Below are positions 6,348 through 29,377 of a stretch of DNA of 64,000 nucleotides, piece after piece (within the stretch, counting starts at the first letter, position 1; each line of letters begins with the position of its first letter). Location of the stretch: assembly GCA_023700245.1 (NCBI GenBank), contig JAJPRE010000004.1, forward strand, positions 24,068 to 88,067, read 5' to 3'. Origin of the DNA: Candidatus Thalassarchaeaceae archaeon (GTDB lineage: Archaea > Thermoplasmatota > Poseidoniia > Poseidoniales > Thalassarchaeaceae). The notes under the pieces were generated by a model, which saw only the letters and a list, made by a program, of their open reading frames with translations, ran no database searches and was not told the origin of the DNA. A program made the position numbers and the translations under genes.

Positions 6348-7021
6348 TGGGCAAAGATATTTGTATCCAAGGAACTAAAGATTTCTTTTATTTAGCACTC
6401 GAAGATAGGTTAAAACGTTCCGGAATAAATATTACTTCAGATGCAAATAACGCTAGTACTACAATTGGAATCGATACTAATGATGAAGTTGACTTATTGA
6501 TTATCCCTAAAGGTAGTAAAAATAATAATGGCAGACTAGTAATTACTATTCATGATCTCATAATACCCACAGGTTATTCCAAATGGAGCCCAAAAGATAT
6601 TTATTTATTTGTGGAGCAAATTAAAAACAATGAAATTAATATCGTTGACAAATCAAAAATACATTACTTAGTTCATATCAGGGATGCCATTGAAGCGATA
6701 TCTATGATATTATTATCTAATAATTTTCAAGATTCTAGAGGTACTATGAATATCTGCGGAAGAAGGGCATGGTCAAATGAGTCTATTTTCAATGAAATAA
6801 AGATGTTATGGACAAGATTTCATAACTCAATAAATTATACTCATACCACTGAATCTTTATCAAAAATACCAAGTATTATTAAAGAAAATAATAGGAAAAA
6901 TAGAGAAAGGCCGAGCCTTGATTCACTAAATAAAGAATTAATAAGAGCGGGAGGAGATGGCTGGCATCCCCTCACGCCTTTGCGTACAGGACTAATGGAA
7001 TTGCTTGCACAAAACCTTTGA
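6344..7021 (-). CDS. Hypothetical protein, degenerate NAD-dependent epimerase-like
   Basis: VHIRDAIEAI, NICG and W.PLTPLRTGL resemble the C-terminus of extended SDRs; no GxxGxxG motif. Confidence 0.55.
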
Positions 7022-7061
7022 GTCCACTCTGAACTATATTTTTTATTAGTTTAAGAAATAA

Positions 7062-7244
7062 TTAACGAGTGTTCTTATCGTTTTGAACAGCTAGACGAAC
7101 TGCTTGAGCATGAGCCTTCATCTCTTGCATAGCTTTTCTTACACGTGTTCCAGCAGCAGAGTTGCCACCGTCGTGTTTACCAGCATCTGTGAGTGCTGCA
7201 GTCAATTCATCAATCATTCCTTGTACCATATCGCTAACGGACAT
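7062..7244 (-). CDS. Small histone H1-like (Hc1-family-like) protein
   Basis: 60 aa two-helix protein with GNSAAGTRVRKAMQEMK, matching the GNxxAGTRxRK signature. Confidence 0.75.
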   Translation of the reverse strand: MSVSDMVQGMIDELTAALTDAGKHDGGNSAAGTRVRKAMQEMKAHAQAVRLAVQNDKNTR

Positions 7245-7299
7245 ATCTCATCGCACCATAGTGCCATTATTAGCCATTACTGTTACTTAAAATCTAAAT

Positions 7300-8286
7300 T
7301 CATTGTTTATTGAACAAATCTGCACCTAATATTGGAAGTATAATACTTGCATCTCCTTCAACTACTACTTGTGGGGCAGTAGGTCGTATTTTACCCCAAG
7401 AAATGGCTTCTTTCAACCTTGCACCTGATAAAGACCCATCATATTCTGGAGCAGTTGTTATTCCAACAGCTGAATCCAAACCCCCTCTATATTGATTCCA
7501 CCAAATAACATGGTGCTTTGAAATTCCACCACCTATCATTAATGCATGACTTTCTTTCGATGTCCACGTTAAATCAGATAGTATTTGTTCATCTGCAAGA
7601 AAATCAATCATAAAATTTGGACTCTTTTGTCTGTGCATAAATAGTTGAGCACCAATCGCCCCATCCGATAATCCCGGAATAACAATGGGAATTCTATTTT
7701 TTGCAGCCCAATATAAAATTGAAGTTTCATCATCTATTCTGTCTCCAAGCTCCCAACAGAGCTCTACAGAGCCGAAGCCAAGCCAGGGATTTTCAGGATG
7801 CTCAATTTTACGCTTGTCTTCAATTTCCTTTAGCCATGGTAAAACTGTTTTTTCTAATATTTCTCCATAACATTCATTCGGTATCACCACATTCCCTAGT
7901 CTATTCAAACCTTCATCGCCTAATGCAATATCATCTAGATCAAAATCTCCATGAAAATAATCTTCATATGTACGCGCAATATCGTGGTCTAAAGTTCCAC
8001 AAGTTGTAATTATAATATTAAATTTTTTATTTTTGATTGCTTCAAGAAAAAATCCTCTTGTACCTGTAGCGCATAAACATGCAGGGAAAGAAAGCCAATT
8101 TATTACCCCTTCTTGATCTGTTTTAGCAATAGAATCACGCAATATATCTCTGGCCTTTGCTAACTTGCTAGCAGTAAATCCTCCTGCTTGTCCCATTTGA
8201 TCGATTAATGAACTAACATTATTAACAACGGAAAAATCATAGTCCTTTACTGGAGTATTAAAATCACCTTTAGAATATTTCGGCAT
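7300..8286 (-). CDS. dys: Deoxyhypusine synthase
   Basis: GGGISKHH and DGSLSGARLKEAISWGK (active-site Lys). Confidence 0.96.
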   Translation of the reverse strand: MPKYSKGDFNTPVKDYDFSVVNNVSSLIDQMGQAGGFTASKLAKARDILRDSIAKTDQEGVINWLSFPACLCATGTRGFFLEAIKNKKFNIIITTCGTLDHDIARTYEDYFHGDFDLDDIALGDEGLNRLGNVVIPNECYGEILEKTVLPWLKEIEDKRKIEHPENPWLGFGSVELCWELGDRIDDETSILYWAAKNRIPIVIPGLSDGAIGAQLFMHRQKSPNFMIDFLADEQILSDLTWTSKESHALMIGGGISKHHVIWWNQYRGGLDSAVGITTAPEYDGSLSGARLKEAISWGKIRPTAPQVVVEGDASIILPILGADLFNKQ

Positions 8287-8297
8287 AATGAATCCGA

Positions 8298-10595
8298 CTA
8301 AGGTTCTAAATTTGAATCCGTCGCATTTTTCATTTGATATATTCTATCTCTAATTGTAGCTGCTCTTTCAAAATCTAATCTTTCAGCAGCCTGTTTCATC
8401 TCTCCCTTTAATTTTTTAATTATTTTTTCTAGCTCTTCATTTTTTGAATCATCAAAATTACTAATCTCTTCATCAATCCAATTAGGTTGAGATATATTAT
8501 CAACTAATGAATTATTACTACTCCATGCACCTACTCCTAAGTCAAATTTATTAGTAAGTGCCTTAATTCCCTTCTTTGGAATTTTCCCAACTAATTTCCT
8601 ACCTCCTTTTTCACCTTTACCTGCTACTCCTGCCATTAAGTCTTCAATTTCTAATCCCATCTTTGGAATACTTTTTTTGATAGTTTTAGGAGTTATATTA
8701 TTTGCTAAATTATGTTTATTTTGCCTACTTCTTCTAGATATTGTTTGTTCAATGGAGGCCTCCATTGCAGGAGATATTGTGTCAGCATAGAGTATGACTG
8801 CCCCATCCTCATTTCTAGACGCTCTCCCGATTGTTTGAAGTAAAGCACGTTCATTCCTTAGAAAACCCTGTTTATCAGCATCAAAAATTGCTACTAATGA
8901 CACTTCAGGTATGTCCAAACCTTCTCTTAACAGATTAATTCCTACAATTACATCAATATGTCCTATTCTCAGGGCTTTAATTATTTCAGTTCTTTCTAAA
9001 GTATCAATTTCACTATGCAAGTAATGAGCTTTAACGCCCATTCTCTGAAAATATTCTGAAATCTCTTCAGCAAATTTAATCGTCAGTACTGTAACCAAAA
9101 TACGTTGATTCAATTTTATTTTTTCATTTATCATGCCTAATAAGTCCTGTACCTGACCTTCAGTTGGTCTTACTTCTATTTTAGGATCCAATAATCCAGT
9201 TGGCCTGATTTCCATTTTTACGATGCCATCAATTTCTGACAAGACTTGTTGCATAGTTCTTTTTTCTTTTGATTTTTTTATTTCTGAAGGAATGGCTCCT
9301 CCTCCGCTGCTAACATGTAACAAACCTTCTGGAACTGCCTGATTAGTAATTTCAGCTAGGTGACGTAACTCCCTCTCTCCCGGAGTTGCGCTAACATATA
9401 GCATCTGAGGAATCAGTTCTTGAAATTCTTTTATTTTTAATGGTCTATTATCATAAGCTGAAGGAAGTCTAAAGCCATGATCAATTAGATTTTTTTTCCG
9501 TGAATAATCTCCTCCATACATTCCTCCAACTTGAGGCAAACTCACATGAGATTCATCCATAATTACAAGATAGTTACTTTTTCCTCCGTGAAATTTAGTT
9601 GCATTTCTAGAAAAAAAATCTAATAAACAATAGGCACGTTGTCCTTTTTCCCTACCATCGAAATGTAAAGAATAATTTTCAACACCTTTACACGATCCTA
9701 CCTCAGATAACATCTCCAAATCAAATTTTGTACGTTGTTCTATTCTATGACTTTCCAATTCCATACTTTTGGAATCATAATATCTAATTCTTTCATCCAT
9801 TTCATCTTCTATGTCTCTCAAAGCATCATTAAATCTTTCCTCATCAGTCATATAGAATTCTCTAGGATGTATCCATGCCTCCTCAATTTCATCCAGTACT
9901 TCCCAAGATACTGCTTCACAAACTTGAATCTTTTCAATTCCTTCCCAATTGAATCTTATTCGTAACGGATCATCCCTACTAGGCATCCAAATATCTAGTA
10001 TTTCTCCCCTTAATCTAACATCCCCTTTAGTCAAATCTCCCTTTGTACGCCTATATTGAAGTCCAACCAAATCATGTACGATATTTTGAGGGTCCGATTC
10101 TTCCCCTGTACACAAACGTAAATGATTTTGCTCAAACACTTCTGGAGGATTCAAACCGTATATTATAGATACCGAACCTACAGCAATTACATCCGGCCTA
10201 GATACAAGGGAGGCAACTGTCGAAAAACGCTCTTGTTCAATTCTTTCATTCATTTGTAATTCCTTATCGATAAATAAATCTCTCCCTGGTATGTATGCTT
10301 CTGGTTGATAATAATCATAATAACTAACAAAATATTCAACTGCATTTTCAGGAAACAAATCTGACATTTCTTGCCATAATTGTCTTGCTAATGTCTTATT
10401 ATGGGATAATATTAGTGTAGGGCGTTGTAATTTTTTAATTATATTGGCCATAGCAAATGTCTTTCCAGAGCCAGTTACGCCTAGTAAAACACAACGCTCT
10501 TGACCACTTTCAATTTGCTCAACTAGTTTATCAACGGCTTGTTGTTGATCCCCAGCCGTTCCATAATCAGATTTCAAAACAAACATAATTACCAC
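8298..10595 (-). CDS. uvrB: Excinuclease ABC subunit B
   Basis: GVTGSGKT, YYDYYQPEAY, DESH, LREGLDIPEVS and a C-terminal UVR domain. Confidence 0.98.
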   Translation of the reverse strand: MVIMFVLKSDYGTAGDQQQAVDKLVEQIESGQERCVLLGVTGSGKTFAMANIIKKLQRPTLILSHNKTLARQLWQEMSDLFPENAVEYFVSYYDYYQPEAYIPGRDLFIDKELQMNERIEQERFSTVASLVSRPDVIAVGSVSIIYGLNPPEVFEQNHLRLCTGEESDPQNIVHDLVGLQYRRTKGDLTKGDVRLRGEILDIWMPSRDDPLRIRFNWEGIEKIQVCEAVSWEVLDEIEEAWIHPREFYMTDEERFNDALRDIEDEMDERIRYYDSKSMELESHRIEQRTKFDLEMLSEVGSCKGVENYSLHFDGREKGQRAYCLLDFFSRNATKFHGGKSNYLVIMDESHVSLPQVGGMYGGDYSRKKNLIDHGFRLPSAYDNRPLKIKEFQELIPQMLYVSATPGERELRHLAEITNQAVPEGLLHVSSGGGAIPSEIKKSKEKRTMQQVLSEIDGIVKMEIRPTGLLDPKIEVRPTEGQVQDLLGMINEKIKLNQRILVTVLTIKFAEEISEYFQRMGVKAHYLHSEIDTLERTEIIKALRIGHIDVIVGINLLREGLDIPEVSLVAIFDADKQGFLRNERALLQTIGRASRNEDGAVILYADTISPAMEASIEQTISRRSRQNKHNLANNITPKTIKKSIPKMGLEIEDLMAGVAGKGEKGGRKLVGKIPKKGIKALTNKFDLGVGAWSSNNSLVDNISQPNWIDEEISNFDDSKNEELEKIIKKLKGEMKQAAERLDFERAATIRDRIYQMKNATDSNLEP

Positions 10596-11495
10596 TTAAC
10601 TGATTAGTTTCAAACTTCCCAAAATTAATGAAATCAATAATAACCATCCTGTAGACATAGATACTCTGAATAATACATTTTGAAAATCATCAAATTTTTC
10701 CTGAGATAAAATTACATAAATATTTACCAATGCCATTATTCCTGCAGTTGCTATGAACCATATCTCATTTATTGGATCCGCAATAGCAAAGCAAGTAAAC
10801 CAAAGTAATGTTAACTGTACCGAAGTTCTAGTTGTTACTTTTTCATTAAATCTTGCAGGAAAAGAATATATTCCATTTTTTTTATCATTTTTAATATCCA
10901 TTTTTGCATAATTAATATCGAATACTGTAATCCATAGCATTACTCCTACTGATATGAAGAAGATCTTAGGAAACCAAAGCAATCCTGCATATCCTTCACT
11001 AATCCCAGTTATCGCGGACCATCCGTGTACGTCAGCAGCAACTGCTAACCAAGCACCCGCTGGTGCCAATGCAAGACAGATTCCTAACCATAAATGACAT
11101 AGCCAAGTAAATCGTTTTGTGTATGGATAAATAAAAAATACTAATACTGGCAACCAAGACATCATTAAAGCTACTTTATTCAACATTCCAGCACCAATTA
11201 TCAATATAAAAAAGAACATTATTGATAATATCCAAGCACCTTTTATAGATATCGATCCCGATATAAGATGACGATTTTTAGTGCGAGGATTGGATGAATC
11301 AATGTCTTTATCTATTATTCGATTTAACGTCATCGCCAAACCTCTAGCACCTATTGCTGCAAAAAATATCCACAAAATATTAGAATTTGTATCAGGAAAC
11401 TGCTCTATTGCTATGATGTAACCAATAAGAATGAAAGGTAAAGAAAATAAAGTATGCTCTATCTTAATGAAACTTAAAATATCTTTTAATTTCAT
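10596..11495 (-). CDS. ubiA: UbiA-family polyprenyltransferase (MqnP-like)
   Basis: IKIEHTLFSLPF, NRIIDKDIDSSNPRT, YPYTKRFT and FDINYA; multi-TM. Confidence 0.9.
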   Translation of the reverse strand: MKLKDILSFIKIEHTLFSLPFILIGYIIAIEQFPDTNSNILWIFFAAIGARGLAMTLNRIIDKDIDSSNPRTKNRHLISGSISIKGAWILSIMFFFILIIGAGMLNKVALMMSWLPVLVFFIYPYTKRFTWLCHLWLGICLALAPAGAWLAVAADVHGWSAITGISEGYAGLLWFPKIFFISVGVMLWITVFDINYAKMDIKNDKKNGIYSFPARFNEKVTTRTSVQLTLLWFTCFAIADPINEIWFIATAGIMALVNIYVILSQEKFDDFQNVLFRVSMSTGWLLLISLILGSLKLIS

Positions 11496-13348
11496 TAATA
11501 ACCCATCCTTTTCATCATATTCTGAACTTTTTCTAACATATCTTTGTCATGTAATGTCACAGCCGGCCATCTTCTAACAGGTAGTGGGCCATTTTTGGAT
11601 GGAATGGGCGCCGTTGCATCCCATGCCACTCTTTGTTTAGTTTTATCAAAATGAATATCTCTTCCAACATCAAACCTACAAAATAATTGCCAAAGTAATT
11701 TCCTTTTCCAATCATCTCTCTTTAGATTAATATCATCATCAGTTATGAATAACCATCTTAAATTCTTTGAAGACTCTAAATTCCAAACTTCTTCACAAAT
11801 TTTTCTTATCTTGTTCCGTTGTTTCTCTGCAGCCTCTTCGTTATATTCTTCAACATTTATTTCCGGCTTCGGCCCACCTTCAATATTGGTAGTAACTACC
11901 ATCATCGAAGGTCTCAACATTCTAACATCAATAATTCCTTCTATTGCAGATGCGGATATTGCAACCGAATTAATATTTGAATTATTTTTATCAAATTCCT
12001 CAACTTCTGAATTTTCACTTGTTGCATCTATTAGCAACTTGGTATGAATATTTTCAATTGGTGAAGCATGTTCTAATGTGTCTGCAACCATTCCTTCAAG
12101 AAATACTAAGTCATTTGGAATATTAACATTCGATTCTATCGCATCTAGAAGGCAATCTAAATCTTTAACTGGATGATTTTTATCTACTGCTATTATAGTT
12201 TTCAAAAACATCATTTGTCCTGCACCCAATAATCCAAGAGCAGTTTTTCTACTCTGTCTTGGATATCGTTGCTTGGAAGATACAATGGCAAGATTATGAA
12301 ATCCAGTTTCAAGTGGTAAGAATAAATCTATTACATCCCTATGTTGGAATTGTAATACGGGCCTAAAAGAATCTCCAATCGCTTCCCCTAAATACCCATC
12401 TTCCATTGGAGGAACTCCCACAATTGTCATTGGAATAATTGGATCTTTTCTATGAGTAATTTTAGTAACATGCATAACTGGATAATAATCTGCTAATGAA
12501 TAATGACCAAAATGGTCTCCAAATGGACCTTCAAGACGAGTCTCACCTGGAATCATGTAACCTTCAATTACAAAATCACATTCTGCAGGAACAAATAAGT
12601 CATTAGTTTTACATTTGACTATCTTTAATCTCTTTTTACCTAATAATCCAGCAAATTCATATTCTGATAAATTATCTGGCAGGGGTGAAATAGCACTAAA
12701 AATAATCTCTGGTGGCCCACCGAGGCAAATCGCAATCGGCATTTTTGCATCTTCAGATTCAGCCGCATGATCTGCACCATGCTTATGTGCTTGCCAATGT
12801 AAACCTAATTCTTTTGATCCAAAAACCTGACTTCTGTACATTCCCATATTATGTTCTCCTGTTTTAGAATCAGCAGTTATTACAAGTGGCAATGTCATAA
12901 ACGGGCCACCATCTAACGGCCATGTGGTGGGAATTGGTAATTTATTGAGGTCAGGATCATCAATAACGATTTGCTGGCAAGCAGCTTTCTTAACCCTTTT
13001 AGGGGCCATAGACATACCTTCCATTGCCAAACCCAATCCCTTCCATGGTGCCTTCAATATGCCACCAATATCAGGTTTCATTAGTGCAACCATTCTATCT
13101 CCAATCTCCTTAGGTTCTTTAACACCGAGAGCAAGATTAGTCCTCTCTCTTGTTCCAAATAGATTCATGGCTAGGGAATATTTACTGATACTGCCATCTG
13201 CCAGCCTTGGTTGATCAAATATTACTGCCGGCCCCCCATTCTTGACTAGATAATCTGCAATACAGCCTGCTTCAAACTTAACATCAACAGGATTACTAAT
13301 TCTAAGTAGATCATTTCTGGCTTCTAGTTCGCGGATGTATCTTGCCAT
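11495..13348 (-). CDS. ubiD: UbiD-family (prFMN) decarboxylase, MqnL-like (start likely ATG at 13348)
   Basis: NMGMYR, LHWQAHKHG, EGPFGDHFGHY and PPMED motifs. Confidence 0.92.
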   Translation of the reverse strand: MARYIRELEARNDLLRISNPVDVKFEAGCIADYLVKNGGPAVIFDQPRLADGSISKYSLAMNLFGTRERTNLALGVKEPKEIGDRMVALMKPDIGGILKAPWKGLGLAMEGMSMAPKRVKKAACQQIVIDDPDLNKLPIPTTWPLDGGPFMTLPLVITADSKTGEHNMGMYRSQVFGSKELGLHWQAHKHGADHAAESEDAKMPIAICLGGPPEIIFSAISPLPDNLSEYEFAGLLGKKRLKIVKCKTNDLFVPAECDFVIEGYMIPGETRLEGPFGDHFGHYSLADYYPVMHVTKITHRKDPIIPMTIVGVPPMEDGYLGEAIGDSFRPVLQFQHRDVIDLFLPLETGFHNLAIVSSKQRYPRQSRKTALGLLGAGQMMFLKTIIAVDKNHPVKDLDCLLDAIESNVNIPNDLVFLEGMVADTLEHASPIENIHTKLLIDATSENSEVEEFDKNNSNINSVAISASAIEGIIDVRMLRPSMMVVTTNIEGGPKPEINVEEYNEEAAEKQRNKIRKICEEVWNLESSKNLRWLFITDDDINLKRDDWKRKLLWQLFCRFDVGRDIHFDKTKQRVAWDATAPIPSKNGPLPVRRWPAVTLHDKDMLEKVQNMMKRMGY

Positions 13349-13456: not shown

Positions 13457-14686
13457 ATGGCTGATGGCATTAAGGCGTGTGATGTTTTGGTAATAGGTGC
13501 TGGCCCAGGCGGTGGAAATGCGGCTTTACATAGTGCTAGGGCCGGACTTTCTACAATAATTATTGAAGATCATGAAGAAATAGGGACACCTGTTCATTGC
13601 GGTGAATGTATTTCTGATGTTGCATGCGACAATCTTGATTTAGAATTGCCCAAACATGTAATCAGTAAACGAGTAAATGGTATAAGAGTAATTTTTCCTG
13701 ATGGCACAGAAAAAAAATTAACTGAAAAGGGATATGTATTAGAAAAACACCTCTTTGAGAGATGGATATGTGATGAGGCTATATCTGAAGGTGCTGCAAT
13801 ACATCTGGGACATAAATTAAATTCAATGGAAAAAATTTACAAAGAAGGTAAATTTTCTGGATGGAGATGCGACGGTAAAGGTGATAATTTCCCTATTGAA
13901 GCAAAAATTGTAATAGATGCGTCTGGTGTAGCGGGTATTTGTTCCAGATTACTTAGTTTAAATCCTAGGCCGAAGGTTATAGCTGGTATGCAATATGAGA
14001 TGTTGGAGGTTCCAACAGATGACTATCTAGACTTTTATATCTGGCCAAAATATGCTGAGAAAGGATATGTCTGGATGATTCCAAAATGTGATGGCAGGGC
14101 AAATGTAGGCCTGGTTACCGAAGACAAATCTAGGACCAAAAAAGGTCTTGATGAATTCATTGCAAATACGCATTTCAAAGACTTAGAACAAGTAGCACCT
14201 CCATGGAAAATTAAAGGTAATCCTGCTTTTGGAGGAACAATTCCTATTTCCGGACCTCATGAAAATACATATGCAGACGGACTAATGCTTGTTGGTGATG
14301 CAGCTGGATTCACATCTCCCTTATTCGAAGGTGGATCCCACCTCGCCCTAAAATCAGCAGTTTTTGCAGCCCAAATTGCGTCTAAATCCATATCTTCGGG
14401 AGATATCACTTCTTCTTCTCTGGCTGAATATCAATCATTGTGGAAAAAAGAATTCCCCCCTTATTCTAAGATTTTAAGTGGTAAATCAGCTCTATTTGAT
14501 TTATCTGATGACGATATGTCATTAATGGCTAGATGCTTCCCTGATGAAATGAGTAATATGGGGCCACATGGAAAATTAGCGGTTTGTTTCAGAATCTTAG
14601 TTCTAAGGCCTTCATTATATGCAAGAAAAATAATCCCTGCCATGTTATCTTTTGGATATTCTCGTGCAAAGCATTACGGCTGGTGA
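13457..14686 (+). CDS. Geranylgeranyl reductase family FAD oxidoreductase
   Basis: VIGAGPGG, CGECIS, YVWMIPK and VGDAAGFTSPLFEGG. Confidence 0.9.
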   Translation: MADGIKACDVLVIGAGPGGGNAALHSARAGLSTIIIEDHEEIGTPVHCGECISDVACDNLDLELPKHVISKRVNGIRVIFPDGTEKKLTEKGYVLEKHLFERWICDEAISEGAAIHLGHKLNSMEKIYKEGKFSGWRCDGKGDNFPIEAKIVIDASGVAGICSRLLSLNPRPKVIAGMQYEMLEVPTDDYLDFYIWPKYAEKGYVWMIPKCDGRANVGLVTEDKSRTKKGLDEFIANTHFKDLEQVAPPWKIKGNPAFGGTIPISGPHENTYADGLMLVGDAAGFTSPLFEGGSHLALKSAVFAAQIASKSISSGDITSSSLAEYQSLWKKEFPPYSKILSGKSALFDLSDDDMSLMARCFPDEMSNMGPHGKLAVCFRILVLRPSLYARKIIPAMLSFGYSRAKHYGW

Positions 14687-17054
14687 TGACATACTATCAT
14701 TTCTTGGGCAAATGCTGCTCATAGTCGCATTTTCTCTATCTATTTATCACATTATAAATAATAAACCAAGAAAATATACTCGTCTTAATGATATAACATT
14801 TATAATACAGTCTTCACCTTTTTGCTTACTTGTTTTTGCATTTTTAACCGATGCCGATTCTTTAAAACTGGTGGCTGAATATGGAGGTTCTGAACTTCCA
14901 GTTTTGTATCGTATTTCAGCAGTATGGGGCGGTAGGGCTGGCCCCTTACTCCTGTGGGCATCATTAATGGCAGCAGTTACTTGGATTATGTCTCAATTAA
15001 ATAATATTGATGACTTAACATTGAAGATAATGCATTTTTGGGTCACATATCTAATATTTATTTCTTGGTTATTAGATCCTTTTTCACCATATCAAGGAAT
15101 TAATGGGGAATTAAATCCATTACTTCAAACAAATCTTATGGTAATACACCCACCACTGGTATTTCTGTATTATTCTCTTTGCATGGCTACTGCGACTGTT
15201 GCCCTGGCTGGAATTATTCAAAAAAATCATAGTAGAACAATTCATGATCAATTACTTCCTTGGGCACGTTCTGCTTTTTTTATAGGGACTCTTGGAATTG
15301 GACTAGGTGGACTTTGGGCATATACTGTTTTGGACTGGGGAGGATACTGGGCGTGGGATCCAGTCGAAACTGGATCTATACTTCCATGGATGACTTTACT
15401 TTTGATAATACATGCACGTTCAAAACCAAACTCCAGTAGTGCTTATTCTATTTCTCCGGCACTGGGGATAATTACCGGAGTTTTAGCCTTACATGCTACT
15501 TTGGTGACACGTGCCAATGGAGTATGGGCATCAGTTCATGCATTTGTCGGTAATGAAGCAAGTACCTTATCTAAGGATCCATATTTGAGGATAATAGATA
15601 TTTCCGATTTTACTCCAGTAGGAATTGAAGTCATTTCATACCTTATTGCAATAATTATATTGGGGTTATTCTCAATTATTCACCTCTACAGGGAACAATC
15701 TTCTAATTTGCTTTTAGATGGAGAAAAATCATTTTTTGAGTCAAATAACTATATTTCATTAGCATTACTAATATTTTTCTTCGTGATAGGAATTGATATT
15801 GGTTCAAGTGCAATCTTGGTACTAGGTATGGTTATTTTATTTCTAATGCTTCATGAATCATCTGAAAGACCTGCGTTTCATTGGATGTTAGCAGGCATAG
15901 TTTTGATGTTATATTCTAATTGGTCATGGTCAGCAAATATTTATCAATCATTTTTAGGAATGATTCCCTTTCTTATTCCTTGGTTCTTATCGGATGTTGA
16001 AGATGATATCTCTGTCTTGGTCAAACCCTTCAAAAATACCTCTCATAGGACCCAATTAGCAAAAAATATTCCTTGGTATGGCGGTGCAACATTTCTCTTA
16101 TTGACATGGATTCTTCTAACAGTCGAGATAGAAGGTAGTAATATTTTAGCACACGAATTTTATGGTGCACCATTGATTGGTTTACTAGCAATTGGATTAA
16201 CGCTATATTCATGGGGAAATTCTGTTACATCCCGTGATGGAAATATATTATTATTTACATGTTTATTAATTTCTATAATTTTGGCATATCTTTCAGACGA
16301 CATATATCTTCCTGGAGATCCAAGCCTTAGCGTTACGCCAAGTATTTCTAGGGGCGCTTTAGGATTATTTATGTTAACTTGGCTAATTTTTGCTTTACCT
16401 CCAACATTTAAAAAATTATATTCGACATCAAGAAATATAATTTATAAATTAAATAAAGATGGTTTTAAGGGTAGAAATTTATCAAAAAGATTTAGATTAT
16501 TGGGATCCAACTTAGCACATTTTGGAATATTATTATTATTAATAGGGCATGTATTTACTACGACTCTAGTAGATAGAACAGATCCTTCCCACTTAGTTAC
16601 CTTGGTAAAAGATCAACCTATAGAGCATAGAGGCTATGATTTCATTTTTACTGATGTAGAAACAATAAATTCTAGTGATTCTCAGTATCCATTTTCTATT
16701 GGTGATGGATATATTGGAATAATAATTGATGTTATGAAAGATGGCGAAAAGATAACTCAAATATCTCCTGGTATGCTCAGATTTACAACTGGAAATTCAG
16801 TTTCTCCAAGGTCTGAGGTTGATAGATTCTCTACATTGTATGGAGATACAATTGTCATTCTTGATTTTTATCAGTCTCAAGAATTATTAGAATGGATGAC
16901 ATTTGGGCAGTCCGAAGAAGTTGATAGAGTTAGAATAACTGTACATTCTTTGCCAGGCAGCCATTTAGTATGGTCAGGTTGGGCCATAATCATGCTTGGG
17001 AGCCTTTTTTCGCTATCTTCTGGAGATATTAGGTCTTCAAAAGAAGAAGAATAG
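14652..17054 (+). CDS. ccmF: Cytochrome c biogenesis heme lyase CcmF (start may be Met at 14712)
   Basis: WGGRAG, LNPLLQ, IHPP, WAYTVLDWGGYWAWDPVET and HAF, plus the C-terminal soluble CcmF domain. Confidence 0.93.
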   Translation: MDILVQSITAGDDILSFLGQMLLIVAFSLSIYHIINNKPRKYTRLNDITFIIQSSPFCLLVFAFLTDADSLKLVAEYGGSELPVLYRISAVWGGRAGPLLLWASLMAAVTWIMSQLNNIDDLTLKIMHFWVTYLIFISWLLDPFSPYQGINGELNPLLQTNLMVIHPPLVFLYYSLCMATATVALAGIIQKNHSRTIHDQLLPWARSAFFIGTLGIGLGGLWAYTVLDWGGYWAWDPVETGSILPWMTLLLIIHARSKPNSSSAYSISPALGIITGVLALHATLVTRANGVWASVHAFVGNEASTLSKDPYLRIIDISDFTPVGIEVISYLIAIIILGLFSIIHLYREQSSNLLLDGEKSFFESNNYISLALLIFFFVIGIDIGSSAILVLGMVILFLMLHESSERPAFHWMLAGIVLMLYSNWSWSANIYQSFLGMIPFLIPWFLSDVEDDISVLVKPFKNTSHRTQLAKNIPWYGGATFLLLTWILLTVEIEGSNILAHEFYGAPLIGLLAIGLTLYSWGNSVTSRDGNILLFTCLLISIILAYLSDDIYLPGDPSLSVTPSISRGALGLFMLTWLIFALPPTFKKLYSTSRNIIYKLNKDGFKGRNLSKRFRLLGSNLAHFGILLLLIGHVFTTTLVDRTDPSHLVTLVKDQPIEHRGYDFIFTDVETINSSDSQYPFSIGDGYIGIIIDVMKDGEKITQISPGMLRFTTGNSVSPRSEVDRFSTLYGDTIVILDFYQSQELLEWMTFGQSEEVDRVRITVHSLPGSHLVWSGWAIIMLGSLFSLSSGDIRSSKEEE

Positions 17055-21455: not shown

Positions 21456-22112
21456 TTATGCTATTTCTTTACGAATATCTAACCACGGGTAATCAACTTT
21501 AGATCGTGCAAGACTTTCTAGATGGGGTGCCAAAGAGATTTTACTTTCACATAATATCCCTCTTCCTCTTAATACCGAAACAGCTGAATGAACTGAAGCA
21601 CGTGATCTTCCTAAATCACGAGCCAATTGAGCTTGTGATACTGGATTAGGAGATTTAGATAATCTTGTAACTATATTCTTTTGAACAGTGGACAAGCCTA
21701 CTGGTAGCATAGATGCAGCCGTATATTCATCAGTAACTCCTGTTCCTTCTAGTATTTCCACTTGTGCTGGTGCACCTGCATAGTAACATGTTCTGCCATT
21801 TACAGGTACTACTGTGACAGTTTTTTCGTTAGTTAATACTCTTAAATGATGCCTTAATGTGCCATTTGCAGCATCTAGTTGTCTCTGTAGTTCTCTAAAA
21901 TGTATTCCAGGTGATTTCTCAAGTGTGGATATAATTCTACTTCTTAATGGATGAACATAATTCTCATGTTGCGGTGCAGACAGTGCTCCTTGAATAAGTG
22001 GAGTCGGAAAAAAGGGAATAATGGTACAAATGCCAAACGCCCCACCCAGCATTGCTGTCAAAAAATCAGCAGTCAAAGGATAAGTACTACGGAGTTGTTC
22101 TAGCACAGCCAT
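21456..22112 (-). CDS. Membrane-anchored tandem winged-helix regulator
   Basis: N-terminal TM, then PGIHFRELQR.LD.ANGTLRHHL and a second HTH SQAQLARDLGRSRASV. Confidence 0.8.
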   Translation of the reverse strand: MAVLEQLRSTYPLTADFLTAMLGGAFGICTIIPFFPTPLIQGALSAPQHENYVHPLRSRIISTLEKSPGIHFRELQRQLDAANGTLRHHLRVLTNEKTVTVVPVNGRTCYYAGAPAQVEILEGTGVTDEYTAASMLPVGLSTVQKNIVTRLSKSPNPVSQAQLARDLGRSRASVHSAVSVLRGRGILCESKISLAPHLESLARSKVDYPWLDIRKEIA

Positions 22113-22183
22113 ATAGCAAATCCTCCCATTCTAACCTTTAACTATACATGGTCTTATGTTTCATCAATGCTCATATTTTAAAA

Positions 22184-22663
22184 TTATTTTTCCTTAACAA
22201 CTCTACCTTTTTGAATCTTCATATATGCTACTAGGGGGCTCAGTAATCTTCCAGCATTCCTGCCATGTTCCGTTAATTGATATCTGACTCTAATTGGGGG
22301 CCCTTCATCCACAATTCTATTCACAAGTCCTAACTCTGCACAGTGAGTAAGCTTATCAGAAAGAGTTCTACTACTAATCCCTGTTAACAGTTTCCTCATC
22401 TCATTAAACCTACGATCTCCTGCAATATATAATGTAGATAATATTTCAATACTCCACCTTGAGCTAAAACTAGAGAATGCCTCAACTGCAGCACTTACCT
22501 CCCATGCTATATCGTAACCTTCACTTTCGTTATATGACGCAAAAGTTTTTCTTATTTTTGTACCACTTTTTCTAACGTCCTCAATAGCCGAATCTATAAC
22601 TTTGAAATCTTCATCTGTAACAATCATCGGTTCCCTTACCATAGTATCAAGTAACTCGCACAC
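22184..22663 (-). CDS. HxlR-family transcriptional regulator (GTG start)
   Basis: SRWSIEIL...RRFNEMRKLLTGISSRTLSDKL...GLV.R...PPIRVRYQLTEHG. Confidence 0.9.
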   Translation of the reverse strand: MCELLDTMVREPMIVTDEDFKVIDSAIEDVRKSGTKIRKTFASYNESEGYDIAWEVSAAVEAFSSFSSRWSIEILSTLYIAGDRRFNEMRKLLTGISSRTLSDKLTHCAELGLVNRIVDEGPPIRVRYQLTEHGRNAGRLLSPLVAYMKIQKGRVVKEK

Positions 22664-24967: not shown

Positions 24968-25059
24968 ATACCGCCCAAAGCAATCTTGCCCATATATTCA
25001 ACTGATAAACGACCTCATTTCACAATAATTTATGTCAACTCCCTCTTTCCGAAAAGAAT

Positions 25060-27702
25060 ATGCGCCATGCTAACCGAGTAAGTATGGCAATTGTATTCAT
25101 TCTTGTTGTATCAATATGTAGTCCTGTAATAGCGAAGGAAGATGGTAAATTTAATTCATCAAATGGTTGTAGTTGCCATACTTCGAATACGCCAGCCACA
25201 ACTCCAACTCATAATTTTCCTTCTACATACACTCCAAATCAATCGTATTCCATATCGATTGGATTTAGTGGAGGCGTTACAGGTTATGATGGAGGATTTT
25301 CTTTAGAAGTAAGTCAAGGTACTCTTTCTACTGGAATCTCAATTGGGAGCGTCAAGATTAATTCTGCTGGTAACCAGGCTACCCATACAACTCCCGACTA
25401 TCGAAGTTGGGGACTTTATTGGGAAGCCCCATCAACGGGTTCAGGAAATATAATCTTTGAATTAGCTGTCTTATCAGCAAATGGTAATGGAAATAAAAAT
25501 GGGGACTCATGGGGAATCATCTCTCCTTTTACTTCTACAGAAATAACTACAAACAATACGCCTCCAGAAGCCAACTCATTATCATTTATACCTATTAATC
25601 CTACTAAAATGACAGGATTATCAATTAATTATACATTTTTTGATTCTGACGGAGATATTGAACAAAATACAGAAATAAATTGGAAGTTAAATGATATCGA
25701 CATTTCTGAAGTAGATAACTCGACTTCTTTACCAAATTCTTTAATCACCAAAGGAGATTATTGGAAAGTAACTATTATTCCATCTGATGGCATAGATTTA
25801 GGAGAAAATATCTCATTAGGGCCTATATTAATTGGTAATTCCCCCCCTTCAGTTACAAATTTTTTCACCCTTCCTGAAAATCCTGATGATTCAGATGAAA
25901 TATCTCTATCATATAATTTTTCAGATTTAGATGGAGATGATGAAGAAGGCACATCAATTCATTGGTATCTTGATGAGTTAAGGCAAAATGAAATCGATAA
26001 CTTTACTTCAATTCCTAGCATAATGATTAGACCTGGAGATATTTGGCAAGTATCGATTACCCCTAATGATGGCCAAGATTTTGGCCAGGTTATTTGGAGC
26101 AATGAAATAATTATTGGTACTTCTAACACTCCGCCAACGATAATTATCTCACCATTCTATTATGATTATTATACGAACATTGATATCCAAGCTTCGATAA
26201 ATTTTTCAGATATTGATAATGATGAAATTCAAGACTTAGAAATTAAATGGTTCCAGAATGGTGTCCAAGTTTATTCGTTAAATAATCTACAAATAGTGCC
26301 TTCAACATTAACACAAAAAGGAGAAAATTGGAATTTTTCTGCTAGAGCTAGTGACGGATTAACGTGGTCAGGTTGGACAAGTTCTGATAACGTAATAATC
26401 ATCAATAGCCTTCCCAGTATAAATTCAGCAAATATAATTCCTAATAAAGAAATAACTACTGTCGATAATTTTCATGCTTCTTGGATATATTATGATGAAG
26501 ATCAAGATGAAGAATCAAACAGTACCCTGAGATGGTTTATTCATGGAGTATTAATGCCTGAATATGATGGTTTGAAGACAATAAATTCATCATTTACAGA
26601 AAGAGGACAAATATGGTCATTTCAAGTCACTCCCAAAGACGGCGTTAATCAAGGATTATTGTTAGAAAGTCCCTCGATATTAATTAAAAACGCAGCCCCG
26701 GAAAGCCCTCAAATATATCTGGAAAATGGTAATGAAGGCTCTCTTAATTTGATGAATGAACTCAATTCTACTGATAATAAAAATGTCTTTTCTCAGTACA
26801 ATCTAATAGCAAAAATTGGTTATTATGATCCAGATGATAGTATTCTCAATATTGATATTCAATGGTCAAGAAATGGTTTTCATGTTCCCGAACTAGATAA
26901 TTTGACATTTGTTTCATCTGAAAGATTGGAGCCTGGACAAACATGGTCTATTTTAGTTGAAATAACTGATCCATTGGGGCTTAGTAATTTCTCTATCATT
27001 TCCATATCTATATCAAATAATCATCCTGAAGCTAGAATTTCATATTCTCCAGAAACTATCATTCCCGGCGTACCAATTATGCTAGATGCTTCAAAATCAT
27101 TTGATTTAGATGGAACGATAAATAGTTGGTTATGGACTATAGACGATTATCAAATAAATGGCCAAAATATAAATTTACTACTTGAAACTGGGCAATATTT
27201 GGTTCAACTATCAGTTACGGATGATATGGGGTCCCGCAATACAACTTACGAGACAATTATTATTGAAGATATTTTAATTGTAGATTCAATTATTGCGTCT
27301 CTGGATGAATCTGACATAAATCTTGAATGGGCATGGAAAGGCAGTCCCACTGAGTTTAATATTTATAGATCAACTTCTCCAATCCTTTCACTATTTGAAG
27401 ACCATCAATCTAAAAAATTAACTCCAATTGCAACTACATCTGAAAGTAAGTGGTCCGAAAAAGTACCTATTGGAACTACGCTATATTATTCTATAACGAC
27501 GTACTATGATGGCGAAGAAGTTATTTGGATTGGTGAAAATGGCACTAATATAATTAGTATAAATGCCTCTACTGCATCTAACTTTGATGCTTCAAAATCT
27601 TTTGATTCATCAACATTATCAATTCCATTTTCAATTTTGTTAATCATGATGGGAATTTCAAGTATATTGTTGAATGTTCTTAAGAGGAGGAAGAGAATTT
27701 GA
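25060..27702 (+). CDS. Surface protein: Reeler-like (choice-of-anchor V-like) domain, five Ig-like repeats, PKD, C-terminal TM
   Basis: Signal peptide; GCSCH; W.AP..GSG...LSANG.G...GD; repeats N.PP...Y.F.D.DGD.E...W...G..W.....P.DG; DAS.S.D.DG.I..W.W (PKD); TM followed by KRRK. Confidence 0.8.
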   Translation: MRHANRVSMAIVFILVVSICSPVIAKEDGKFNSSNGCSCHTSNTPATTPTHNFPSTYTPNQSYSISIGFSGGVTGYDGGFSLEVSQGTLSTGISIGSVKINSAGNQATHTTPDYRSWGLYWEAPSTGSGNIIFELAVLSANGNGNKNGDSWGIISPFTSTEITTNNTPPEANSLSFIPINPTKMTGLSINYTFFDSDGDIEQNTEINWKLNDIDISEVDNSTSLPNSLITKGDYWKVTIIPSDGIDLGENISLGPILIGNSPPSVTNFFTLPENPDDSDEISLSYNFSDLDGDDEEGTSIHWYLDELRQNEIDNFTSIPSIMIRPGDIWQVSITPNDGQDFGQVIWSNEIIIGTSNTPPTIIISPFYYDYYTNIDIQASINFSDIDNDEIQDLEIKWFQNGVQVYSLNNLQIVPSTLTQKGENWNFSARASDGLTWSGWTSSDNVIIINSLPSINSANIIPNKEITTVDNFHASWIYYDEDQDEESNSTLRWFIHGVLMPEYDGLKTINSSFTERGQIWSFQVTPKDGVNQGLLLESPSILIKNAAPESPQIYLENGNEGSLNLMNELNSTDNKNVFSQYNLIAKIGYYDPDDSILNIDIQWSRNGFHVPELDNLTFVSSERLEPGQTWSILVEITDPLGLSNFSIISISISNNHPEARISYSPETIIPGVPIMLDASKSFDLDGTINSWLWTIDDYQINGQNINLLLETGQYLVQLSVTDDMGSRNTTYETIIIEDILIVDSIIASLDESDINLEWAWKGSPTEFNIYRSTSPILSLFEDHQSKKLTPIATTSESKWSEKVPIGTTLYYSITTYYDGEEVIWIGENGTNIISINASTASNFDASKSFDSSTLSIPFSILLIMMGISSILLNVLKRRKRI

Positions 27703-28781
27703 AATCTAGAATAATCACTTTAATCGGATTATTTATTATTTTATCATCAACAAATATGACTTTAGGTAACCCGGGAGGAAACGAAGATGGGAATAGGGAT
27801 TTTACATGCGGAGGTTCATGTCATGGAGATCCCTCACTCTCTCAAGTATCCGAAGGAAAAATTTTCATCGATTCCAAGGAAATAATTTTTGCAGGCACGG
27901 CAGTATCAATTAATGTAAATGTGAGTTTAGAGGGTTCATCAAAAGAAAACCTTCTCGGGGTTTTTCTTTTGAGTTCATTGAATGGTAATGGCGACCAACC
28001 TAATGATCATGGTTGGAAAATAATTCAGGATCCTAATGGAGGAATAAATAATTATGTTGAAATTATGATTCCGAATAGTGGAAATGTAATATTAACATGG
28101 ATATTAACTGCACCTATACAAATTGGTGAGCAAAATTTGTATGTCCAAATTAATCATGGTAAATTGAATAATCCTGATAATCTAGCATTGACCGGAGTTT
28201 CTGAAGCGCATAATATTAAAATTCTGTCCACTCCAGAAAATTTACCCGGATTTTCTGATACTTGGATTGCTCCACAATACCGTATATCTGGAGACAATTC
28301 ACCATTAATAATAAACACAAAAAATACAAATAAAATATCGGCAAAATGGAAATTAGAAGGTGATAACACTATACATCAAGCACAAATTAATTCTATTAAT
28401 GAAAATTCTTGGGAAGTATTTCTACCATTCACAACTGGAGATATAGAAATAAAATATATGGTTACGACATATAATGATGATTTTCCAGTAGAACAACCAT
28501 GGTTAACTATTGGCACTATCCCACCACCTTTTGAAGGTTCATTACTTGGTGCCAGGCTTCAAGCATTTGCATTCACATGTATAATAACTGGTTTTATTAT
28601 TAGTCTGCAATCTGCATTTAAACCGCAAAATGATAAAAAACAGATTAACACTAAAGAATCAAAAAATGAGAGTATTAAAGCAAAATTAATCAGGAGTTCC
28701 GAATATCCTGGATGGCTTTGGGATACAGTAGCCGAAAAGTGGATTCCAGAAAATGATGATAAAAAGGAGATTCATAAGTAA
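27699..28781 (+). CDS. Second Reeler-like surface protein with CxxxCH motif and C-terminal TM (TTG start)
   Basis: Signal peptide; FTCGGSCHGD; LTWILTAP; GAGGAGG SD; TTG start overlaps the upstream TGA. Confidence 0.75.
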   Translation: MKSRIITLIGLFIILSSTNMTLGNPGGNEDGNRDFTCGGSCHGDPSLSQVSEGKIFIDSKEIIFAGTAVSINVNVSLEGSSKENLLGVFLLSSLNGNGDQPNDHGWKIIQDPNGGINNYVEIMIPNSGNVILTWILTAPIQIGEQNLYVQINHGKLNNPDNLALTGVSEAHNIKILSTPENLPGFSDTWIAPQYRISGDNSPLIINTKNTNKISAKWKLEGDNTIHQAQINSINENSWEVFLPFTTGDIEIKYMVTTYNDDFPVEQPWLTIGTIPPPFEGSLLGARLQAFAFTCIITGFIISLQSAFKPQNDKKQINTKESKNESIKAKLIRSSEYPGWLWDTVAEKWIPENDDKKEIHK

Positions 28782-29377
28782 TGGTTGGAGCAGCAACTTT
28801 TCATGCAGCAATGGTAGAAATAACAATTGGAAGTTTGACACTATCTGTAATTTGTACAATTATGTGTTTACAATATGCATTTAAATCACCAATTGATAGA
28901 TTAAATCTTTCAGAAAATAAATTATTAACGATGGATAGGGCAGCACTTATTGGGGCTATTTTAGGTACCATAATGATGCCATTTTCTATAATGTCCGGAA
29001 CTCTTTCAGTAGCCGGAGATCCTGCTGGCTCAATATTATTATACAATAAATTTATTTATAGCGGATTAGCATTGGGTTTTTGGGTTTCATATGTTATTGG
29101 AAGAGTGCGGTTAGGGCCAAATCTTTGGAAGAATAAAAAGCTTAATATTTTACAAGTTTCAACTGCAATTTTAGCTTTCTTTATGACTATAACGATAGCA
29201 TCAATTGGAGGAAAATTAGTTAGAAATGAATCATTATTGGACTTAATTCCTTTTTGGTTCCCTATCAATTCTACAATAGTTATTCATCCATTATTATCTA
29301 TTATAATAATTTTAACTGGAATTTGTTCAATTATTACTGTATCAAAATTCGGAGAAATTATTGAATACGAAGATTAA
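28781..29377 (+). CDS. Integral membrane protein (DUF2231-like)
   Basis: About five TM helices; N-terminal FHAAMVEITIG and late A.IGG.LV; start overlaps the upstream stop (TAATG). Confidence 0.6.
   Translation: MVGAATFHAAMVEITIGSLTLSVICTIMCLQYAFKSPIDRLNLSENKLLTMDRAALIGAILGTIMMPFSIMSGTLSVAGDPAGSILLYNKFIYSGLALGFWVSYVIGRVRLGPNLWKNKKLNILQVSTAILAFFMTITIASIGGKLVRNESLLDLIPFWFPINSTIVIHPLLSIIIILTGICSIITVSKFGEIIEYED

Follow-up and report, generated by a model that had tools for sequence, protein, structure and literature searches.

A three-gene surface module of Marine Group II archaea with two candidate Reeler-like c-type cytochromes and a membrane partner

Here we analyze three adjacent genes, designated P1, P2 and P3, in a stretch of 64,000 nucleotides (nt; the window) of contig JAJPRE010000004.1 from a Candidatus Thalassarchaeaceae archaeon (assembly GCA_023700245.1, positions 24,068 to 88,067 of the forward strand). 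The genome to which the window belongs, G000, has a size of 1.47 Mb, is 82% complete and is a member of the Poseidoniales (Marine Group II, MGII). Open reading frames (ORFs) listed with translation table 11, together with a reading of the sequence, showed that the three genes lie on the same strand and that neighbouring genes overlap. We propose that P1 and P2, exported by Sec and anchored at the C-terminus, are c-type cytochromes that carry a single haem on a Reeler-like beta-sandwich, that P2 forms a complex with the membrane protein P3, and that the three would constitute an outward-facing branch of the MGII respiratory chain. Taken as a whole, we place this proposal just on the probable side. 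We favour it because one sister domain is fused to cytochrome oxidase subunit I (CoxI), another is encoded by the lead gene of a Rieske/cytochrome b operon, and the cytochrome c maturation (Ccm) machinery of these archaea has no other substrate. The argument for haem thus comes mostly from context that was out of sight for the first-pass annotation, which had been made from the letters of the window alone and had put forward a cell-surface system for either electron relay or metal acquisition. Electron relay is the better reading of the two in view of the redox contexts of the paralogs, and nothing was found that links the module to the acquisition of iron or other metals.

A haem-type motif with variable spacing

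Both P1 and P2 carry a Cys-Xn-Cys-His (CXnCH) motif 12-14 residues past the predicted Sec cleavage site, CSCH in P1 and CGGSCH in P2, exactly where the first-pass annotation had read them behind the signal peptides. The signals consist of a hydrophobic N-terminal segment with AxA-type cleavage and have no RR pair, in contrast to the RREF of the Rieske protein encoded in G000. Sec export is what Ccm substrates need. Counting the motif spacing among 150 family representatives gave Cx3CH in 82, CxxCH in 11, CxCH in nine, Cx4CH in seven, Cx5CH in three and a single cysteine in nine; the CxxCH variants include CNGCH, CDNCH, CKLCH, CIQCH and CYGCH. The CH pair is therefore fixed in the family while the spacing to the first cysteine varies from n = 1 to n = 5, with the canonical n = 2 included, and a fixed Cys-His at a variable distance from the first Cys is a known variation of haem-c sites (PMC4429474). 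Judged by this pattern of variation, the motif seems to behave like a c-type haem site, and the canonical spacings present in relatives lend substance to the first-pass description of atypical haem-type motifs. We consider it somewhat more likely than not that P1 and P2 are proteins with covalently bound haem c.

The first-pass annotation had reckoned with the possibility that the motifs are not conserved or that the genes do not occur together, and we found the contrary. The P2 family comprises at least 107 clusters, all of them from MGII, and Cx3CH is kept in 106 of 107 P2 homologs. CxCH is kept in 34 of the 36 P1 homologs (as G-C-x-C-H), and the most distant homolog has CGGGSCH. In genome G092 the P1 ortholog carries the canonical GCGSCHG, with an identical divergent fadB neighbour and identical downstream P2 and P3.

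Redox contexts of the paralogs

Several members of the family are encoded in redox settings. Firstly, a paralog on contig C43 of G000 (273 amino acids (aa), GCTCH, C-terminal transmembrane segment) is the first gene of a Rieske/cytochrome b operon (7522-13310). It is followed by the genes for a 149-aa membrane protein (weak DUF7318), a Rieske protein with a twin-arginine translocation (Tat) signal, the N-terminal part of cytochrome b (143 bits), and a 927-aa protein in which the C-terminal/subunit-IV-like part of cytochrome b is fused to a 4Fe-4S dicluster domain and two CCG (HdrD/GlpC-like) domains. The same pairing of paralog and Rieske/cytochrome b is present in G185. MGII have been reported to possess Rieske/cytochrome b and a 'cytochrome c oxidase' without cytochrome c1 or a carrier (PMC6336850); from its place in the operon, the C43 paralog appears to occupy the cytochrome c1 slot. 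Secondly, a gene of G185 (contig C1, 13726-16038) encodes an exported domain of the choice-of-anchor V family (NCBIfam NF041895; CNCH) located N-terminal to COX1 (476 bits), and many MGII genomes have NF041895 matches of ~770-790 aa that are of this CoxI-fusion type. The fusion gene was not found in the incomplete G000. Thirdly, a P2-type protein of G150 (NCVNSCH) is encoded among tetra-, octa- and ~16-haem cytochromes, and a P2-type protein of G146 adjoins a CEGCH protein.

Some features of these loci deserve mention in their own right. The cytoplasmic extension of the 927-aa protein is unusual for a bc-type complex. Another paralog of G000, on contig C26 (5660-6775, minus strand; ortholog in G185 at 931193-932185), carries CSCH and has a C-terminal half with multiple transmembrane segments, not a single anchor. 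The cluster of G150, a Thermoplasmatota genome (family f43, 37% GC), lies at 2879500-2887000 of contig C1 and shows a mixture of CxxCH, Cx3CH and Cx4CH sites. A search of G150 for PF01578 (CcmC/CcmF/CcsA) gave no match at E <= 1e-5, so that either the gene was missed or the maturation system is unusual; we considered this genome as a counter-example to the Ccm link and rejected it, since obvious multihaem cytochromes adjoin the family member.

The Ccm machinery and its proposed substrates

The gene encoding the cytochrome c synthetase CcmF is present in the window itself, outside the operon and 10 kb upstream of it, and a CcmA/B fusion, CcmC (WWD motif, WGKPWDWGDLRL) and a Trx-CcdA fusion are encoded elsewhere in G000. 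A streamlined archaeal CcmABCEF system, which like archaeal Ccm systems in general lacks CcmH/I, has been shown to be sufficient in Methanosarcina (PMC9084895). The G000 set matches this system, with CcmE found in relatives only (47 of 51 Poseidoniales). On contig C18 of G000 (5311-7472), the CcmA ATPase and a CcmB-like domain are fused in a protein of 469 aa, and the end of its gene overlaps the ccmC start.

None of 51 MGII genomes has a PF13442 match over the cut-off, and the only sub-threshold match in them is the motif of the G092 P1 protein. We also carried out a census that was independent of family membership, which collected ORFs with C-x(1-5)-CH and an N-terminal hydrophobic segment. 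In G000 it returned P1, P2 and two paralogs only, besides thioredoxin-type proteins and a stray 1.5-kb contig; in the single-contig G185 it returned six family members and no classical cytochrome. In the MGII genomes examined, the family supplies the only secreted CXnCH proteins, and the Ccm machinery of MGII has no other substrate than this family. The stray contig, C39 (1562 bp), carries a pentahaem ORF (81-689, five CxxCH) that we considered as a native cytochrome and rejected: it is of the bacterial alternative-complex-III pentahaem type, has no counterpart in the complete G185, and is probably bin contamination.

The link between the family and Ccm extends beyond MGII. Among 301 Thermoplasmatota, all 72 Poseidoniia carry Cytochrom_C_asm genes, and so do all 29 other Thermoplasmatota with an NF041895 match at E <= 1e-14, against a background of 76 of 229 non-Poseidoniia (hypergeometric P = 1.7e-16, uncorrected for phylogeny, ~10 families).

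Fold and family membership

P1 scores 75.3 bits against NF041895 (150-position model, cut-off 42) over aa 25-152 and is thus a member of this family; the G000 paralogs on C43 and C26 score 74.8 and 67.2 bits. The first-pass annotation had called both surface proteins Reeler-like. For the P1 domain this would hold as remote homology only. A profile made from 13 core-family domains has the F-spondin Reeler domain as its top three PDB matches (2zou, 2zot and 3coo; E = 2-3.5e-3), but P1 reaches only 14.4 bits (E = 0.058) on Pfam Reeler (PF02014), below the threshold of 21, and P2 has no match to it; one MGII paralog passes the threshold with 22.4 bits. The F-spondin match starts only past the CH motif, which makes the CXnCH segment an N-terminal addition.

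P2 appears to be a divergent member of the same superfamily as the P1 domain, because intermediate sequences score on both the P2 profile and NF041895. Searching 1.84 billion representatives with the P2-family profile recruited 214 proteins, many of which share the N-domain only, and the recruits P0367, P0337 and P0326 score 40, 30 and 26 bits on NF041895. Conserved positions of the core family are GCxCH, GF.L, (A/L)TH (with P1 H108), W...W.AP and NG.G..GD.W; those of the P2 type are NY.E, W..AP and HHG. A BLASTP comparison of the P1 N-domain with P2 was not significant, nothing meaningful came out of an hmmsearch with the P2 profile against PDB sequences, and Foldseek of the full-length P2 model against the PDB gave generic tandem immunoglobulin (Ig) matches only. 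Neither P1 nor P2 has a Pfam match to the class I cytochrome c fold (PF13442/PF00034), and the P2 model is a beta-sandwich.

Architecture of P1 and P2

According to hydropathy and domain searches, P1 is a type-I anchored surface protein consisting of a signal peptide, a haem-type N-domain, a stalk and a transmembrane helix. The stalk repeats, whose boundaries were read from the sequence, have DxDGD-type acidic motifs at aa 195, 289 and 384, and the PKD domain that ends the stalk is followed by one further beta domain and then by the C-terminal helix with a KRRKRI stop-transfer sequence. P2 is likewise type-I anchored (hydropathy, AlphaFold2 model), with a signal, two beta-sandwiches, one transmembrane helix and a cytoplasmic tail of 58 residues. 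This layout agrees with the first-pass view of a long stalk in P1 and a P2 that sits close to the membrane. In the AlphaFold2 model of P2, the predicted local distance difference test score is below 50 at the CGGSCH segment, which is what one would expect where the chain folds around a cofactor.

We aligned conservation with the candidate ligand positions. Across 28 diverse homologs of P2, the most distant at 31% identity, no change occurs in the block NPGG..(R)D..CGGSCHGDP (C37, G38, G39, C41, H42, G43, D44 and P45), in N118-Y119 and H153-G154, which are candidate distal-ligand positions, or in W134, P139 and the cytoplasmic PGW..W motif. The histidines of ATHT in P1 and of NHG in P2, which had been pointed out in the first pass as possible distal ligands, are conserved: H108 of P1 is near-invariant and H153 of P2 is invariant. 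The position of H108 also matches that of the conserved His111 of a modelled Ignicoccus Reeler-fold cytochrome (PMC4429474). The conserved tail motif of P2, changed to P.GW...EQW in the clade that diverges most, could be a sorting signal or the docking site of a partner in the cytoplasm.

The membrane partner P3

P3 has five transmembrane helices as predicted by hydropathy and the AlphaFold2 model, with a topology that follows from the positive-inside rule, and H8 is invariant; the multi-spanning protein with an N-terminal His described in the first pass is therefore what we found. In the genome sample, P3 is restricted to the Poseidoniales and one distant high-GC family, f22. More than 300 P3 homolog clusters keep H8, E13, C25, C29, M51-D52, Y88-N89-K90, R108, R110 and SIGGK..R.ES..D. 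The invariants that MGII and f22 have in common are H8, E13, C25, D52, N89, K90, W101, R108, W116, G143, G144, S151 and D154, and H8 is kept even in homologs at 23-25% identity. C29 corresponds by position to His in the f22 homologs in an ungapped reading, not a gapped alignment. These residues of the ligand type are concentrated at the two predicted membrane faces, outer and inner, which would be compatible with bound haem or metal.

In f22, the gene for the P3 homolog (23-25% identity) follows, with translational coupling, that of an anchored exoprotein with an EB_dh domain (DOMON superfamily, 106 bits), a CQGCH motif after the signal and an internal CLVTCH. Since P3 pairs with a haem-type anchored protein both in MGII and in f22, the P3 family seems to work with anchored haem-type proteins outside the cytoplasm in two settings that are unrelated to each other. 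The first-pass annotation had drawn an analogy with eukaryotic proteins that combine Reeler, DOMON and cytochrome b561 domains. The pairing with an EB_dh cytochrome in f22 echoes this analogy, but P3 is not of the b561 type: we considered P3 as a dihaem protein of the cytochrome b561/ferric-reductase type and rejected this because there is no four-His pattern. By Foldseek, its model resembles b561, Dcytb and STEAP at E = 0.1-0.8 with a TM-score below 0.45, and bo3 subunit III also weakly, none of which counts as evidence. P3 scores 13.8 bits on DUF2231 (PF09990), under the gathering threshold of 26.4, and nine of 19 homologs have weak matches to it over four transmembrane helices (best E = 3.9e-4, all sub-cut-off). 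DUF2231 itself has no known function, and a literature search on its function returned one incidental mention and nothing relevant.

The module as a unit

The three genes are conserved as an operon in MGII. Synteny of P1, P2 and P3 is kept down to 31% identity, and within the Poseidoniales sample both P2 and P3 are present in 53 genomes, neither in ten, P2 only in one draft and P3 only in none. None of P1, P2 and P3 is present in genome G177 (97% complete, five contigs), which has retained both the CoxI fusion and the paralog of the bc operon; the absence of all three genes with retention of the paralogs indicates that the module is accessory and is lost whole. G146, G150 and G077 have Cx3CH family members without any P3 homolog, and P3 is therefore not a general factor for Cx3CH sites.

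Proposed function and points that weigh against it

Putting these data together, the module may work as follows. After signal cleavage, the Ccm system (CcmAB, CcmC, CcmE, CcmF and Trx-CcdA) would attach one haem to CxCH of P1 and one to Cx3CH of P2. The proximal ligand would be H40 in P1 and H42 in P2, and the pocket would be closed by a distal residue, H108 in P1 and H153 or Y119 in P2. P2, near the membrane, would be complexed with P3 through transmembrane segments and exchange electrons with the membrane or the cytoplasmic side. P1 would display the same kind of haem on top of a stalk of ~7 modules and, being tethered and probably flexible, could carry electrons at a distance to an external or neighbouring redox partner. 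In this way, the module would form an optional, outward-facing electron-transfer branch of the MGII respiratory chain, in which sister domains would fill the place of cytochrome c1 (lead gene of the Rieske/cytochrome b operon) and that of an oxidase-fused cytochrome c (CoxI fusion). What the sequences show directly is how the genes are built and conserved, to which families they belong, their associations in the genomes, and that Ccm is present and other cytochromes c are absent; the covalent haem, the identities of the ligands, the complex of P2 with P3, the direction in which electrons flow and the external partner are what we infer from them. A stronger version, according to which CxCH is a genuine covalent haem-c site matured by the streamlined archaeal Ccm system, Reeler-fold cytochromes make up the entire c-type set of MGII, P3 is a new electron-transfer family serving anchored cytochromes of both the Reeler and the DOMON type and the module is an outward conduit, for instance for reductive iron acquisition or extracellular electron exchange, strikes us as rather unlikely in all its parts together.

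Several observations weigh against our proposal. Concerning the motif, we know of no demonstrated haem-c site with a one-residue Cys spacing, and a literature search for a CXCH haem motif returned the Rieske motif only. Moreover, the usual single-thioether pattern is not what seven of the nine single-Cys members show: their Cys is at -3 and the one at -1 is missing (CSAH type). Concerning the family, P2 has no match to NF041895 at E <= 1, and hhalign finds P1 and P2 to be only weakly similar, over a short stretch (95% probability with the signal peptide, 28% without it); this means that their homology rests on the intermediate sequences. As to maturation, CcmE was not found in the 82%-complete G000, and the co-occurrence of the family with Ccm is confounded with a respiratory lifestyle. 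As to P3, its model has no structural match by Foldseek below E = 0.05, and the protein has only one invariant His, H8. As to the operon, the flanking genes are kept equally well, so that synteny extends beyond the module and adjacency alone is weak evidence. Finally, a single haem on the end of a long stalk can be wired to the membrane only if the stalk is flexible.

Alternative explanations

The alternative that survives best, which we nevertheless regard as improbable, is that the Cys-x(n)-Cys-His motif and the distal His bind copper, zinc or non-haem iron, which would make the domain an electron carrier of the copper type or a module that binds or scavenges metal, and that P3 is a metal transporter or metallochaperone. 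Archaea often use blue-copper proteins (halocyanin, sulfocyanin) in the place of cytochrome c (PMC4122944), Cys2His2 is a good set of metal ligands, and the single-Cys CxxH variants would suit a metal as well as haem. P3 also has traits that fit: the intramembrane C25-x3-C29 with its Cys/His swap in distant homologs is as found in metal transporters, and the Met-Asp pair would suit a metal transporter or metallochaperone. However, metal sites rarely tolerate n = 1-5 with a fixed CH, orthologs have the canonical CxxCH, and the fold is Reeler-like and not that of a cupredoxin. Besides, this explanation would leave the Ccm machinery of MGII without a substrate and does not account for the family member that sits in a multihaem cytochrome cluster.

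Less probable still is that P1 and P2 are structural adhesins or surface proteins (S-layer-associated or particle-binding) that have no redox function, with a disulfide staple and a structural His, and that P3 is an anchor or assembly factor. The adhesin-like architecture of P1 with its long Ig/PKD stalk speaks for this, as do the definition of the choice-of-anchor families as surface proteins, the generic Ig tandems that alone came out of the P2 fold search, the haem-free, heparin-binding Reeler domain of F-spondin (PMC4429474), and the particle-associated, polymer-degrading life of MGII (PMC6336850). What a disulfide staple fails to explain is why a His directly follows the second Cys and why there are single-Cys members. 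It also fails to explain the CoxI fusion, the lead position in the Rieske/cytochrome b operon, the place in a multihaem cluster, the pairing of the P3 family with EB_dh and the link with Ccm.

We give the same low standing to the possibility that P1 and P2 are haem-c proteins and P3 is a dedicated factor for their maturation or handling, such as a thiol reductant, a chaperone or a haem-delivery protein. Sites of the CX15CH and CXXCK types likewise have lyases of their own. In P3, a Cys pair within the membrane is conserved and a His lies at the outer face, and both known partners of the P3 family carry Cx3CH (CGGSCH in P2, CLVTCH in the f22 EB_dh protein); the lack of CcmH/I in archaeal Ccm (PMC9084895) would leave room for such a factor. 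Against this stand the Cx3CH members of G146, G150 and G077, which do without P3, and the MGII genomes that lack P3, which also lack P1 and P2 and yet keep CxCH paralogs (G177). The loss of P3 together with P1 and P2 shows that P3 is tied to these two proteins, not to a type of motif.

Binding of a Rieske-like or other iron-sulfur cluster by the CxCH box and further ligands is barely conceivable: CxCH is the conserved Rieske box II (PMC4122944) and P1 has two Cys and conserved His residues, but there is no box I (CxH...C), the domain has no further Cys, the Cys spacing is variable, and the signals are of the Sec type, unlike the twin-arginine (Tat) signal of the genuine Rieske protein in this genome.

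Comparison with known systems and implications

The closest precedent for the cytochromes that we propose comes from the Desulfurococcales. Kletzin et al. 2015 predicted Reeler-fold monohaem cytochromes, none of them purified, in Ignicoccus (Igni_0759 and Igni_1052 of Ignicoccus hospitalis), Pyrolobus and Hyperthermus; these were modelled on the F-spondin Reeler domain (3COO) with 100% confidence and have C28-x-x-C31-H32, a conserved His111 and a C-terminal transmembrane segment (PMC4429474). Like P1 and P2, these proteins have an N-terminal signal, Cys-Cys-His ~30 residues in, a Reeler-like beta-sandwich and a C-terminal transmembrane segment, and they share with P1 a conserved His near position 110. 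They differ in having CxxCH, where n = 1 in P1 and n = 3 in P2, and the likeness is one of described architecture. The long stalk of P1, the second beta domain and tail of P2 and the coupled P3 are not present in the Desulfurococcales proteins. Relative to this precedent, the non-canonical spacings, the three-gene module and the set of paralogs across the MGII respiratory chain would be new. The survey of Kletzin et al. searched for CxxCH only and listed no cytochromes c for the group studied here (PMC4429474).

As for the families, the closest are NF041895 and NF041894 (MXAN_6652 family). NF041895, of which P1 and two paralogs are members and on which P2 is too divergent to score, unites surface proteins with a common N-domain followed by alternative anchors and has no functional annotation. 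The eukaryotic Reeler domain (PF02014; F-spondin, reelin, FRRS1/SDR2) has remote similarity to P1 in the beta-sandwich core, but it has no N-terminal CXnCH extension and is not known to bind haem. The combination found in FRRS1/SDR2 (Reeler-DOMON-cytochrome b561) recurs in the P3 family as a pairing of a DOMON-type protein (EB_dh) with a membrane protein, which in the case of P3 is not a b561.

Other respiratory systems offer analogies of arrangement. In Sulfolobus, the cytochrome b558/566 module CbsA-CbsB, together with SoxL2-SoxN, is part of an archaeal complex analogous to bc and replaces cytochrome c1 in an archaeon without classical cytochromes c (PMC4122944). CbsA is an extracellular, membrane-anchored monohaem protein encoded beside a polytopic partner, CbsB, and contains non-covalent haem b. 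No sequence relationship with CbsA/B is expected, and P1-P2-P3 lies outside the Rieske/cytochrome b operon, inside which there is a paralog. In caa3-type oxidases and with membrane-tethered cytochromes c (cy, c552), a haem-c domain is fused or tethered to a respiratory complex, comparable to the CoxI-fused paralog, although the MGII fusion is to subunit I and not subunit II. Cytochrome f is a beta-sandwich too, anchored at its C-terminus and with the haem site close to the mature N-terminus; we found no homology to it, and the MGII domain fold is unrelated to that of class I cytochrome c.

MGII, which are uncultured, belong to the most abundant surface-ocean microbes. The family is a candidate for all the c-type haem proteins that have been missing from them, which would explain why a full Ccm system has been kept in their genomes. 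Should this be confirmed, cytochromes c would gain a Reeler-fold class with a beta-sandwich, and the known haem motifs would reach down to a one-residue spacing. Scans for CxxCH miss such proteins, which is relevant for every motif-based survey of cytochromes. The patchy distribution of the module within MGII could be the sign of an ecological trait, namely redox exchange with the surroundings, which metagenomes would allow one to follow.

Operon layout and neighbouring genes

The coordinates of the features are given in Table 1. The stop/start overlaps read by the first-pass annotation (TTGA and TAATG) are present in the sequence. At the P1/P2 junction, ATTTGA (...AGA ATT TGA), the TTG start of P2 is at 27699 and is preceded by GAGGAGG; at the P2/P3 junction, TAATG (AAG TAA TGG), AAGGAG lies ahead of the start. 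No ribosome-binding sequence like those ahead of P2 and P3 was seen at the P1 start. A divergently transcribed fadB-like gene is located 92 nt from P1, and the region between the two would be a putative archaeal promoter with a short or absent P1 leader.

Table 1. Features of the P1-P2-P3 module and of the ccmF gene, with positions in the window
Feature	Position	Strand	Remarks
CcmF (cytochrome c synthetase)	14652-17054	+	PF01578, 81.7 bits, and CcmF_C
Divergent intergenic region with TATA-like A/T-rich element AATAATTTATG	24968-25059	+	element ~25 nt upstream of the P1 ATG
P1	25060-27702	+	880 aa
P1 Sec-type signal peptide, aa 1-25	25060-25134	+	no twin-arginine motif; predicted cleavage after VIA
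P1 choice-of-anchor V/Reeler-like beta-sandwich, aa 25-152	25132-25515	+	NF041895 match
P1 C37-S-C39-H40 (tgt agt tgc cat, codons 37-40)	25168-25179	+	proposed contracted haem-c site with proximal His
P1 A-T-H108-T	25378-25389	+	His near-invariant in core family; candidate distal axial ligand
P1 stalk	25552-27255	+	~5 tandem beta repeats of ~95 aa, then PKD domain (aa 653-732)
P1 C-terminal transmembrane anchor	27616-27672	+	hydropathy
P2	27699-28781	+	360 aa, TTG start
P2 mature N-terminus NPGGNEDGNRDFTCGGSCHGDP	27768-27833	+	invariant block holding C37-x3-C41-H42
P2 CGGSCH, codons 37-42	27807-27824	+	proposed haem-c site
P2 ectodomain, beta-sandwiches aa ~45-176 and ~185-275	27831-28523	+	AlphaFold2 model
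P2 transmembrane anchor	28545-28607	+	hydropathy, AlphaFold2 model
P2 cytoplasmic tail motif YPGWLWD-x5-W	28704-28742	+	P337 and W348 invariant in 28 homologs
P3	28781-29377	+	198 aa, ATG start
P3 F-H8-AAMV-E13	28799-28819	+	His and Glu invariant; predicted outer end of transmembrane helix 1
P3 C25-x3-C29	28853-28867	+	predicted inner end of transmembrane helix 1; C25 invariant
P3 Y88-N89-K90	29042-29050	+	predicted outer start of transmembrane helix 3; N and K invariant; Y88 is His in f22
P3 SIGGKLVRNESLLD	29201-29242	+	predicted outer end of transmembrane helix 4; G143, G144, S151 and D154 invariant; K145 is His in f22

Upstream of the fadB-like gene, the minus strand (21456-22663) encodes an HxlR-type regulator and an HVO_0163-like helix-turn-helix regulator. 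Their synteny with P1-P2-P3 is kept in all loci inspected.

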